Assembly (NCBI RefSeq): GCF_030013205.1 | Contig: NZ_CP122650.1 | DNA: 58,594 bases | Direction: 5' to 3' (one strand) | DNA from: Escherichia coli | GTDB lineage: Bacteria; Pseudomonadota; Gammaproteobacteria; Enterobacterales; Enterobacteriaceae | Part shown: in pieces, positions 55,801-58,594 of the stretch | Layout of the letters: each line of letters opens with the position of its first letter | Position numbering within the stretch: the first letter of the stretch is position 1 | Program-made: the position numbers

Positions 55801-58594
55801 CACACCATAAAAAACATGGTAGTTTTCTTTAAGGTTATCCTTTAAAATATTAACAGCCTTAGTATATTTTTCGTTAATAAACTCTCTCACCTGATATTCC
55901 ATAAAATTCTCCGACAAGAACCGACTGTAGGTCACCGGGCAAACGTTGCAGAATGGCGTCAGAGACGTCATTTTGCGGCGTTTGCCCTATCCTGCATCGC
56001 AGTGAAAAGGCAGGGTCTGGCATAACTGCTGAGTAGCATCATTGCTGGCTTATCTCGCTACTGTTCTCGGTGCTTTCGTCCGCAGGTTCGGGAACAAGTA
56101 ACTTGTGCCAAGGCATAGTTTTGTTGAGCAGCTCCATCAGAGGCTCAGCCAGCAGTCCCAAAATCCAGGTTGCCGTAATCACCGGTATAGTCAGATTTTG
56201 TGGCGTCCATAACTGGTGATCGAGATGATACCAAGTGATGACACACAAAATACCACCCAGCCAGAATACAGCCCATTTAAACGCACCAAGAATGGCTAAC
56301 ACAAAAACAAAGATAAAATGTAAAACACTCGCGACAAGAAGACGAAGATAAAACCATCCCCAGCCAAGCCACTTAACAAAAGTGCTCCCTGTTTTCACTG
56401 CAAAACGTTTCTTACGCTCCCTGGCAATTTCTTTCCTGAATTTAGCACGTTCTTCCCCCTGAGGGAATTGATAGATTTGAGCCATGAGCTACCTCATTTC
56501 GATCTCAAAACGAAGTTTATGCAATTATCCTCTGAAACCGTATGGTATTCTGATATCTAAGCCCTCACTTTCTTTATCTATTTTATAAGAAAACCTTAGC
56601 TTTGATGCTCTTCTTGCGACTCTCTCAACGATTTTAACTTCGAGATGATTAATCTCTGTATATTGATTTATTTTTTCAATATTTTTTTGCAGAAAAACCT
56701 TATTAAAATCCTTAAAATTCTGATAAAGGTAAACTTTTTCGCCATTATCTATTCTGAATAATTCAAGTTCATCCTTTAATACATCTACTTCAATGTCGAA
56801 AAATGTCTTTTTACCACTGCTGTATTGTTTCCTGATAAACTGATAAAGCATATTTGAATTTTGATCAGCGAGTCTTACAGACGATATCAAAACCTGAGTA
56901 GTGTAAGAATCCTTTAACATCGTGATATATGGCTCAATGACATGTGAAAAAGCAATATCAATATATCCTTCACTTTCAACATAATCACAAAACGCAGTCA
57001 GGTTCATAAGCCTGACTGCATCAGAAGGTAATTTACCTCTCTTCTTCGTATGTCCAGAGCTTTGATTGCCCTGAGGTGTGAGAAGTTGATTTCGAGGAAT
57101 GCGAATAACACTGGCCTGAAGTTCTTCTGCCCCCTCTTTCAACTGCCGGTAAGCACCTGTTACATCAATATCAGCGATAAATGCATATTCCCGAGCCGTA
57201 ATACGAAAGGTTGCCCCCTCAGATAACTCTTCACGTGAATCAATCTGCGCCATAGCCATAAACAAAATTCTTCTGGCAGACAAAGGCAACGATGAGAATG
57301 TGCTGTTAATTTCATTTCTGTGGCGAATTTTTGTTTTCTTTGTAACGCTCAGTAAGTTCATACATTACCTGTGGTTTTTAAGTTCTGATGGTGAAATCAT
57401 AACCACAAAGGCGGAAATATGTAAAGTGGTTTATCCACCTTATGTATTTCCACCAAAACACTGATCACATGAAAGAATTTTTATCATTTATATTCAATAT
57501 GATAGAAATGCGCAGGTATCCACCTTTTAACGTCATACGTTAAATTAGAGCACTATAAAGAACTAAAGAAATGAAGATACAAAGATACGAATATCTGAAT
57601 AAAAACAGAAAAATGCGTACCCATCCACCTTTCAGTGCGTACCCATCCACCTTTCAGTGCGCAGCCATCCACCTTTCATGAAAATTACAGTGCGTACCTA
57701 TCCACCTTTCAGTGCGTACCCATCCACCTTTCATTTTGAGGCGACAAAAAACAACACCTATCTTAATGAAATTATTGATAAAAAAGCTGGCACAATGTTT
57801 GCAGAATAAGTTAAAGTAAGTTAAAGATCTTAAAGTAGATCTACCGATCTACATTTAAGATCTTAAAAACAAGAAGTTTAATAAGCAAAAAAACACAAAA
57901 AATCTGTGGATAACTCTGCTCAAAACAAAAAATTCACAGCGCCTGTGGATAACTTTGCGTAAACCCGGAGGACAGATCACTCTGAACCAAGACAACCACA
58001 CATAAAAACAATATGCTCATATTTTGACCACTGTGCGTAAGTGCCTAATGTAATCCCTGTGCTATTCCGCTTCCTCGCTCACTAACTCGCTACACTCGGT
58101 CGTTCGGCTGCGGCGAGCGGTGTCTCCTTTCTCAAAACCAGAAGAGTTCAGCTCATACGATCCGTTGATTGATCCTTTTTGGATCTTTCACTGAGAAGCC
58201 CTGAATCGCTTTCTGCCGCTTCGTTCGATACAACCATGGTGAAACCATGCGAAATCGAAAAAATCGCTCAGAATGCGATACAGCGCGTTTTAGAGGGTAT
58301 TTACAAAACAGTCGTTGCCTTGAGGAAATTTTGATCAAGATTGAACTCCTATCCGGATCATGGCAACAGATCACAGCAACAAGGCCGCTAAAAAGCGTTG
58401 AGCGGCGTTAAAAACCGTTAAACCGTAGCTGACTACAACGAAACGGGAAAAAACGCTCAGAACGCGTTACAGAGCGTTTTAAGGCGATGTCGGAAAGAGC
58501 CATATCTCACCTGTTCTGATGTTTTTCTCAACATAAGCACTTTTAAGAGTGCTTTTAAAGATGCTATTATGCCAATGAGACAAGCGGAGGGCTT

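Follow-up and report, generated by a model that had tools for sequence, protein, structure and literature searches.

What does a ColE1-type priming site do beside an iteron origin, and what is the direct repeat that follows it? The window, i.e. the whole stretch of 58,594 nucleotides analysed here, is one circular IncX1 plasmid of a pig Escherichia coli, presented in linear form. Position 58594 joins position 1, the start of the stbD antitoxin gene, and the 2072 nt past this junction are identical in a near-identical plasmid. The original prediction had placed both elements at the edge of the window, but this edge comes from linearising the circle, and the extended sequence runs into stbD. Its sequence ceases to follow the IncX1 reference at nt 244, immediately upstream of the IS91 copy, and the toxin gene stbE is absent after it in our plasmid. 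The features at the junction are as follows.

1..249, plus strand: stbD, a Phd/YefM-type antitoxin gene (sequence comparison with the IncX1 reference)
58543..58570, plus strand: promoter-like site for stbD, TTAAGA-16-TATTAT, adjoining the palindrome AGCACTTTTAAGAGTGCT (promoter prediction)

The plasmid is a non-conjugative derivative, having lost the taxA-side oriT and the tax genes. It carries haemolysin and fimbrial genes. It also encodes a serine recombinase (52481-53143), which presumably resolves its multimers.

The iteron origin and its flank

The priming site and the repeats occupy the non-coding flank of a Rep3/iteron/DnaA-box origin, which has the following parts.

56525..57361, minus strand: replication initiator gene of the pir/repX type, 278 aa (ORF; Pfam Rep3_N, E = 1.9e-19, and Rep3_C)
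57506..57731: six 22-bp iterons with the consensus about CAGTGCGTACCCATCCACCTTT, the core of a gamma-type origin (repeat families)
57826..57862: A+T-rich segment with four GATC sites, three of them as AGATCT
57905-57913 and 57944-57952, minus strand: two consensus DnaA boxes, TTATCCACA (motif search, repeat family)
58159..58185: three GATC sites including the inverted repeat GATCC-TTTTT-GGATC, kept in IncX4
58333..58372: three GATC sites in the spacer between the direct-repeat copies

A Rep3 initiator with 22-bp iterons upstream, DnaA boxes, and bis and ddp3 downstream makes this an IncX (R6K-type) iteron replicon. The replicon region is identical in plasmids typed IncX1, and identical plasmids of this type have 56525..57361 annotated as the replication initiator. 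The order of the parts is also that of the R6K gamma origin, i.e. non-coding flank, DnaA box, A+T-rich segment, 22-bp iterons, rep, bis, an inverted repeat with oriT, and ddp3. The density of GATC within the plasmid peaks at 57801-58400 with 11 sites (Poisson P about 2e-7). The flank itself is unannotated in the best 25 plasmid matches, carrying no feature or at most a hypothetical protein, and our Rfam search of 55500-58594 gave no family at E <= 1.

A homologue of the ColE1 priming site

58058..58130, minus strand (the active strand by homology): homologue of the ColE1 ssiA-type primosome assembly site, PriA-dependent and of the phiX174 type (BLAST)

The close resemblance of 58058-58130 to the PriA site of ColE1/pMB1, as originally predicted, is confirmed by alignment to ColE1, so that the refuting outcome named beforehand, a lack of significant alignment to known ssi or pas elements, did not occur. 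In a BLAST search with 58000-58200, positions 58061-58121 are identical to ColE1 (NC_001371.1) 1368-1308 at 57/61 positions (93%, E = 1e-22). The match to pDETEC17, a ColE1-like 5.6-kb plasmid, covers 72/77 positions (94%) and extends to 58137. The alignable core is thus 58061-58121, and with some ColE1-like plasmids it extends to 58137. With 58040-58145 as query, matches came from over 5000 plasmid records; the small mobilizable plasmids of ColE1 type had identities of 88-96% across 55-77 nt. There is a single such site in the window, and 0/100 shuffles gave a match. A resemblance of this strength makes a single-strand initiation site a reasonable reading.

Primosome assembly sites of the phiX174 type share the hexamer AAGCGG on their active strand. 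It is found on the minus strand of the window at 58067-58072, and again at 58216-58221. The ColE1 site and ours both have it on the equivalent strand, with a consensus DnaA box nearby.

We assigned the active strand from the RNAI positions in ColE1 (645-749, minus strand) and pDETEC17 (747-847, plus strand). RNA II starts 555 bp upstream of the ColE1 origin (PMC4393325), which puts this origin near 1191-1200, where GGAAAAACGCC occurs. The ColE1 counterpart of our site hence lies about 110-175 nt downstream of the origin on the RNA II-sense strand, which is displaced, with the ColE1 DnaA box (1271-1279) 30 nt away, and the ColE1 ssiA/n'-pas has been described at such a downstream position (PMC3167613; PMC3640518). 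The comparison shows that 58058-58130 is homologous to the site (ssiA, n'-pas) at which ColE1/pMB1 assembles its lagging-strand primosome, and that the minus strand of the window is the equivalent of the active ColE1 strand. This strand decides what the site can do.

Folding does not help here. The minimum free energy of the single-stranded site is -6.6 kcal/mol with z = +0.75, and the genuine ColE1 site is equally at background (z = +0.71), so that the DNA fold has no discriminating power. Variation among 12 sequences is too small for covariation to appear.

The settings of the two sites differ. Ours belongs to an iteron/Rep3 origin and faces it, while the ColE1 site belongs to an RNA II/Pol I origin and points away from it. 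The DnaA boxes lie on the other side of the site and in the other orientation than in ColE1, and the surroundings are not homologous. We considered a remnant of the whole ColE1 origin in 58130-58594, where the RNA-DNA switch region would lie upstream of the priming site, and rejected it, as a multiple alignment is homologous in the priming site only and the local alignment scores against ColE1 and pDETEC17 were reached by 108/300 and 142/300 dinucleotide shuffles of the relevant strand.

Conservation among IncX plasmids

The segment 58064-58293, covering the site, the DNA following it and the first repeat copy, has about 88% identity to IncX4, a group in which the Rep gene and the iterons cannot be aligned with ours. 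The core of the site is nearly invariant between IncX1 and IncX4, and also across 12 IncX and ColE1-type sequences with unrelated flanks. The three GATC clusters around the site are kept in IncX4, and the site has an equal distance and orientation to the rep gene in both groups. R6K (IncX2) has neither the site nor the repeat, with no alignment better than chance, and we dropped it as a source of homologous ssi sites. It replicates and conjugates without a ColE1-type priming site.

One could take the site and the repeats for inert scars, left next to the origin by chance after earlier recombination with ColE1-type plasmids. IncX and ColE1-type plasmids share hosts, the homology is limited to short patches between unrelated flanks, the cer-like copies described below are clearly decayed with neither XerD arm nor ArgR box, and R6K is without both elements. 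However, the priming-site homology begins and ends where the functional ColE1 element does rather than at arbitrary points, the near invariance of the core stands against a divergence of ~12% around it and Rep regions that cannot be aligned, and the GATC clusters have been conserved as well. We consider such scars quite improbable.

Transfer origins and the transferred strand

The original prediction had left open a transfer or mobilisation region next to the site. In the MOBP family, an oriT is recognised by a nick sequence YATCCTG/Y (the slash marks the nick) preceded by an inverted repeat. The window has just one nick-like sequence of this type, CCTATCCTG/CATCGC, which lies beyond the rep and bis genes, on the far side from the priming site.

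55986..55994, plus strand: MOBP-type nick-like CCTATCCTG/C of the replicon-side oriT, inside the IncX long inverted repeat (motif search; PMC3402527)

That 58058-58594 begins a transfer region with an oriT would agree with the frequency of repeats and hairpins in transfer origins, and an oriT near the replicon is indeed present in IncX plasmids (PMC3402527). But bis and ddp3 enclose the long inverted repeat (55890-56000) that contains the nick-like sequence, no YATCCTG occurs in 58058-58594, this region runs on into stbD, and the repeat aligns to cer-like sites rather than to any oriT. Only the initiation-site half of that earlier alternative appears reasonable, judged from sequence, and we give the transfer region hardly any credence.

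The complete plasmids provide a second transfer origin. In pSARA30 the nick-like CCTATCCTG/C occupies 33588-33596 of the plus strand. It lies upstream of taxA, and the genes of the leading region are encoded on the other strand. The IncX4 plasmid pE105-5 has TCTATCCTG/C on the minus strand at 31852-31838, and its priming site at 27192 in the orientation found in the window. With nick sites and transfer direction deduced from the MOBP consensus, the strand transferred from the taxA side in both plasmids would correspond to the minus strand of the window. The replicon-side oriT, the only one kept here, would transfer the plus strand, and if so the priming site cannot serve transfer in our plasmid.

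Signals of the ssi type are carried on the transferred strand in the leading regions of conjugative plasmids of the F, R100 and ColIb type. The IncX site resembles them in that its active strand is the probable transferred strand and that it follows the nick at a distance of a few kb, where the leading region ends; the genes of this region use the transferred strand as template. The likeness holds for the taxA-side oriT only, as the second, inverted IncX oriT transfers the opposite strand.

A possible role in the recipient

The agreement between the active strand and the strand transferred from the taxA side favours priming of the complementary strand in recipient cells. We lean, if only slightly, towards the view that the ssiA homologue in the origin flank has this role and that the repeats are decayed cer-like fragments. 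As established for ColE1 and presumed here, the minus strand of the site, when single-stranded and coated with SSB, would adopt a folded form recognised by PriA, which with PriB and DnaT would load DnaB from DnaB-DnaC, followed by primase. The primosome would then move 5' to 3' along the minus strand towards the iterons and the rep gene, its primers being extended back towards stbD. In complete IncX1 and IncX4 plasmids, the minus strand would be the one transferred from the taxA-proximal oriT. The site would trail the nick by 3.4-4.6 kb, at the distal limit of the leading region, and might thus seed complementary-strand synthesis on the incoming DNA. With the taxA-side oriT and the tax genes lost, the site in our plasmid would be an inherited element of the backbone.

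It is also possible, though we think it doubtful, that the site serves vegetative IncX replication, giving PriA-dependent DnaB loading or priming as a backup of the DnaA/Rep-dependent loading. The site might also establish a leftward fork through the iterons, and primers on the minus strand would start the rightward leading strand. A similar role has been proposed for ssi signals flanking other plasmid origins. Within the GATC-rich flank, our site is separated from the DnaA boxes by ~100 nt and from the iterons by ~330 nt, its distance and orientation to the rep gene are alike in IncX1 and IncX4, and it is kept in non-conjugative derivatives such as ours. The ColE1 site also adjoins a DnaA box, which is able to substitute for it (PMC3640518). 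However, a rightward fork from the iterons uses the minus strand as leading template and displaces the plus strand, so that the site would not be exposed on a displaced strand as in ColE1. Origins of the R6K gamma type need no such site, none is present in R6K, and retention in non-conjugative derivatives would be expected anyway from linkage to the origin.

The direct repeat and its likeness to cer

58250..58292, plus strand: direct repeat copy 1, kept in IncX1 and IncX4 (repeat search)
58439..58481, plus strand: direct repeat copy 2, with the 9-bp inverted repeat AAAACGCTC...GAGCGTTTT (repeat search, fold)
58236..58255, plus strand: ATGGTGAAACCATGCGAAAT, identical at 18/20 positions to a ColE1 stretch that precedes the XerC arm of cer by about 160-180 nt
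58268..58308, plus strand: match to the XerC-proximal end of cer-like sites (35/41), with no XerD arm after it

The direct repeat noticed earlier near 58268 and 58453 is real. Its copies are 84% identical over 43 nt with a start-to-start spacing of 189, and share a 28-nt core at 58265-58292 and 58454-58481, for which 0/100 shuffles had two matches. The 35/41 match is to the cer-like sites of NZ_CP146684.1 and pDETEC84. Its score was reached by 0/500 shuffles, as was that of the match of ATGGTGAAACCATGCGAAAT to ColE1. Copy 1 is followed at 58296-58306 by the XerC-arm-like GGTATTTACAA, which agrees with a cer-like site at 9/11 positions.

A cer-type site consists of a XerC arm, a central region of 6-8 bp and the XerD arm TTATGKTAAAT, with about 180 bp of accessory sequence having an ArgR box and the Pcer promoter about 100 bp upstream. 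We found no XerD arm with at most one mismatch in 57000-58594, and on this ground rejected a functional Xer site at the repeats. In an alignment to ColE1 cer and the two cer-like sites just two ends are shared, the segment with the ArgR box and Pcer and the middle of the accessory region having no counterpart. In ColE1-type plasmids rcd is transcribed towards XerCD (PMC2831885), and the hairpin and TTTT correspond to the 3' end of rcd in their cer. Unlike ColE1-type cer or mrs, the cer-like element is doubled here as a direct repeat. The direct repeat consists of two diverged copies of an element of ~45 nt, which is homologous to the end of cer next to the XerC arm, i.e. the 3' end of the rcd unit. 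Having neither XerD arm nor ArgR box, they are read as decayed cer-like fragments.

The repeats are neither recombination nor transfer sites. They are at most weak terminators made of a hairpin and a T-run, or boundaries between the origin and the addiction module. Copy 1 was flagged as terminator-like on the minus strand (5-bp stem, T6), and the DNA fold of copy 2 has z = -1.9 on the plus strand and -2.4 on the minus strand. Promoter prediction gave no promoter sending transcripts into the repeats. Homology among IncX plasmids stops directly behind a repeat copy, and copy 2 is followed by one of three different toxin-antitoxin cassettes.

Other candidates for the repeat were discarded. A swap of T:A to A:T in the IncX copies looked compensatory for a structured RNA or ssDNA hairpin, but among 26 repeat instances none of three candidate helices covaried above the shuffle or slide controls. 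The peptide AQNAIQRVL recurs, but in-frame stops in IncX4 and other copies speak against a small protein gene. Self-BLAST of pSARA30 and R6K puts their inverted repeats elsewhere, so the repeat is not part of an oriT or of the IncX long inverted repeat.

The repeat core beyond IncX plasmids

The repeat core (CAGAAYGCGWTACAGMGCGTTTTAGRGG) is found in phage and plasmid contexts that have no Xer site, and hence may have a function of its own. It is 29/29 identical in an Arsenophonus phage between a replication organiser gene and dnaB. In a family of lambdoid-type contigs, for which the annotated phage and E. coli collections gave no match, a P-like replication gene precedes it by about 80 nt. It is also found in a plasmid-like region of Thauera between kfrA-like and rep-like genes, where CGATGTCGG is common with copy 2, in intergenic regions of jumbo phage and plasmid DNA, and in T5-like phages, whose untranslated terminal-repeat region has it at 70-150 nt from DnaA boxes. 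This T5-like region is conserved and unexplained (bioRxiv 10.1101/866236).

These positions would suit an independent cis element, e.g. a site bound by a host factor, or a small hairpin with a regulatory or terminator role, carried by plasmids and phages beside replication and entry functions and recruited by cer sites and IncX origins. We regard this as unlikely. The conservation of the core is partly built in, as most instances were collected by a pattern that fixes it, no helix covaries, the contexts are heterogeneous, and there is no Rfam match. DnaA boxes accompany the core only in IncX1 and the T5-like phages, and were rejected as its general companion.

More tentatively, a joint claim can be put forward as possible. 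IncX1 and IncX4 might have recruited a ColE1-type PriA site to the strand transferred from the taxA-side oriT, at the distal limit of the leading region. A mobile primosome assembled there on the incoming DNA would make the leading region duplex first. Separately, the 45-nt core might be an unrecognised cis element that phage replication modules and the untranslated terminal repeats of T5-like phages have in common with cer sites and IncX origins.

Significance

The site and the repeats are real, conserved and of known kinds of sequence. The practical gain is modest, since both kinds of element have been known since the 1980s. In the literature library that was searched, no paper mentions both IncX and primosome. 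Plasmids of the IncX1 and IncX4 groups are major vehicles of resistance and virulence genes, among them mcr-1 in IncX4, and a PriA-type site on a defined strand predicts that recipient establishment or replication depends on priA and dnaT. The site also bears on the design of minimal IncX replicons and on annotation. Short cis modules, here ssiA and a cer fragment, move between unrelated replicon families.

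Layout of the origin flank

A database search matched the final 1195 bases of the window at 100% identity to many pig E. coli plasmids, one of which is circular, 58,596 bp long and typed IncX1 plus IncFIA. In the plasmid pW1316-2, the first base of the antitoxin gene directly follows the equivalent of window position 58594, and the sequence is identical to the window from position 1 onward over 2072 nt. The window is thus a linearised circle, and the edge at which the original prediction placed its features is merely the cut point of the record. The origin flank contains the following features.

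Features of the origin flank, by window position
57361 to 56525, minus strand: Rep3-family initiator gene (278 aa), then bis-like and ddp3 genes
57506-57731: six 22-bp iterons
Between iterons and DnaA boxes: A+T-rich segment with four GATC sites
57905-57913 and 57944-57952: two consensus DnaA boxes
58058-58130: the predicted priming site
58250-58292 and 58439-58481: two repeat copies
58543-58570: promoter-like site ahead of stbD
1-249: stbD

The 25 best-matching records list no feature in this flank, or at most a hypothetical protein, and no paper mentioning both IncX and primosome was found in the library searched. The priming site and the repeat both belong to known kinds of element.

The stretch 57801-58400 is the densest 600 nt of the plasmid for GATC, with 11 sites versus one per 451 nt plasmid-wide (Poisson P about 2e-7). 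The sites form three groups (57826-57859, 58159-58182 and 58333-58369), which are kept in IncX4. By analogy with Dam/SeqA-controlled origins, where such enrichment is typical, the clustering points to control of this IncX1 flank by Dam and SeqA.

A ColE1-type priming site and its active strand

The resemblance to a ColE1-type primosome site is well borne out: window 58061-58121 aligns with ColE1 1368-1308 at 57/61 identities (E = 1e-22), and the priming site matches the ColE1-like 5.6-kb plasmid pDETEC17 at 72 of 77 positions. At least 5000 database records match the site; among them are small mobilizable ColE1-type plasmids, with 88-96% identity across 55-77 nt. ColE1 RNAI lies at 645-749 on the minus strand (Rfam) and the RNA II start is 555 bp upstream of the ColE1 origin (PMC4393325), which together put the origin near 1191-1200, where GGAAAAACGCC is present. 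The matched ColE1 stretch is 110-175 nt downstream of this origin and 30 nt from a DnaA box (1271-1279); ssiA/n'-pas is placed at this location in the literature, "close to a dnaA box" (PMC3167613; PMC3640518).

The plus strand of the window matches the ColE1 minus strand. In ColE1 the active strand is the one displaced, which has the RNA II sense; its equivalent here is therefore the window's minus strand, with AAGCGG at 58067-58072. RNAI of pDETEC17 is on the plus strand, and the same active-strand assignment follows. A second AAGCGG (58216-58221, minus strand) lies inside CGAACGAAGCGGCAGA, within the conserved stretch that separates the priming site from copy 1, and might be part of an extended or second PriA recognition structure.

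Beyond the 60-77-nt core, a multiple alignment found no alignment with ColE1-type plasmids. The idea that the flank preserves part of the ColE1 RNA-DNA switch region was rejected, as the score was no better than for shuffles. Single-strand folding gave no signal for the priming site and none for the genuine ColE1 site either, and is hence non-discriminating.

IncX4 plasmids share the block 58064-58293, covering the priming site, three GATC sites and copy 1, at about 88% identity; in the Rep gene and iterons they show no alignment to the window plasmid. Among 12 IncX and ColE1-type sequences, the priming-site core hardly varies. R6K (IncX2) has the same gene order as the window plasmid but, unlike it, neither priming site nor repeat. 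The core is found at three places in Escherichia albertii pEA4_36 (conjugative MOBP/MPF_T, not IncX), one beside hicAB and traL, and is thus scattered beyond the ColE1 and IncX families.

Transfer origins and possible function

Long inverted repeats in IncX plasmids contain two transfer origins, one close to taxC and the other close to rep (PMC3402527). The conjugative IncX1 plasmid pSARA30 has these repeats at 33499-33608 and 1356-1465, and both carry, after an inverted repeat, CCTATCCTG|CATCGC, which is the MOBP-type nick consensus and gives the predicted nick positions. Starting on the taxA side, the nicked strand passes through the small leading-region genes and stbED, for all of which it is the template, and next through the repeats and priming site; its counterpart in the window is the minus strand. 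The active strand is therefore the one transferred, and the site lies 3.4-4.6 kb behind the nick. On this ground we favour a role in priming the complementary strand in recipient cells, a function that, like the nick positions, we infer. The IncX4 plasmid pE105-5 has the same geometry, with a minus-strand nick-like site at 31852-31838 and the priming site at 27192.

A serious rival is that the site serves vegetative replication of the IncX origin. A phiX-type primosome moves 5'->3', and a PriA primosome assembled on the minus strand moves in that direction towards the iterons and the rep gene. For a fork travelling rightward from the iteron origin, the minus strand is the one copied and the plus strand the one displaced, so the priming site is positioned differently from that of ColE1 with respect to the origin.

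The window plasmid is typed as non-mobilizable. Its sole remaining nick-like site is the replicon-side one (55986-55994), from which the other strand would be transferred, and the priming site is therefore inherited backbone in this plasmid. While the primosome part of the original interpretation stood, its alternative of a mobilisation region was rejected, the nick-like site being at a distance and the circle continuing into stbD at position 1. Window 55890-56000 is one IncX long inverted repeat, in which an intact MOBP-type nick-like sequence overlaps the ddp3 start. An IncX helper supplying TaxA and TaxC might mobilise the plasmid.

The direct repeat and its likeness to cer

The predicted direct repeat was confirmed as two copies with 84% identity. 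IncX plasmids carry one or two copies, and inter-plasmid homology ends just after a copy.

Repeat copies in other IncX plasmids
pE105-5: copy 1 only
pCRTS: hybrid single copy, then stbD
pSZB23-2 and p43: copy 2, then two other toxin-antitoxin cassettes

The hybrid in pCRTS (IncX4, 915-1128) is copy 1-like on the left and copy 2-like on the right, as expected for homologous recombination between copies deleting the 146-nt spacer. An unrelated 426-nt insert separates the priming site and the repeat in pCRTS.

Two of the weak plasmid matches, one in pDETEC84 and one in an F plasmid's ColE1-like segment, show the repeat sequence leading directly into an Xer core, GCGTCAGAAAGCGATTGAGAGCGTTTTAGAGGGTACGTACAA-(6)-TTATGGTAAAT. 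Copy 1 matches this stretch, which resembles the ColE1-type dimer-resolution site cer, at 35/41 positions including 9/11 XerC-arm bases, and copy 2 at 25/29; none of 500 shuffles reached either score. Window 58236-58255 also matches ColE1 160-180 nt upstream of the cer XerC arm (18/20). The cer gene rcd is transcribed in the RNA II direction, from the ArgR side to XerCD (PMC2831885), so the hairpin plus TTTT common to cer and the repeat would be the 3' end of the rcd unit. No XerD arm with up to one mismatch was found in 57000-58594, and alignment to cer gave no ArgR box or Pcer counterparts in the window; lacking these, the copies fail the definition of an Xer site. We take them to be decayed cer-like fragments that may still serve as weak terminators or boundaries.

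The repeat core in other contexts

The repeat core, CAGAAYGCGWTACAGMGCGTTTTAG, occurs with 29/29 identity in an Arsenophonus phage, where it sits between a replication organiser gene and dnaB. In lambdoid-type contigs it follows a P-like replication gene at a distance of about 80 nt, and it is also present in intergenic regions of jumbo phages and plasmids. Some T5-like phages have it in the untranslated terminal repeat (background in bioRxiv 10.1101/866236), beside DnaA boxes. Three candidate helices showed no covariation above controls in 26 instances, most of them found with a core-fixing pattern that partly builds in core conservation, and an independent function of the core is therefore kept as a minority reading only.

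In the untranslated terminal-repeat region of Klebsiella phage Sugarland (1506-1832) and a further T5-like phage, the core is followed by a LexA box without mismatch (TACTGTATAAATATACAGTA), then by three DnaA boxes and finally by a perfect palindrome with 15-bp arms, whose left half is identical to the left half of the IncX repeat. A plasmid-like betaproteobacterial region in a Thauera terpenica contig (3700-3775) has the core with CGATGTCGG, which follows copy 2 in the window; on one side are a DnaJ-type zinc-finger ORF and a kfrA-like gene, on the other a rep-like gene. A J-domain gene also adjoins the repeat region in IncX plasmids.

Neighbouring genes and cargo

The match between stbD and the IncX1 reference ends at nt 244, shortly upstream of an IS91 copy; with its toxin partner stbE missing, stbD is left as an antitoxin-only remnant. 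At least four IS91-type copies are in the window (410-aa ORFs at 430, 2259, 36439 and 49944, the first at 430-1982). The cargo includes an hlyCABD-type haemolysin operon at 41282-48529, a region for which pW1316-2 is annotated with hlyD and a type I secretion ATPase, as well as an ORF at 6014-8578 of the size of a fimbrial usher. Such cargo is consistent with a virulence plasmid of enterotoxigenic or oedema-disease E. coli from pigs.
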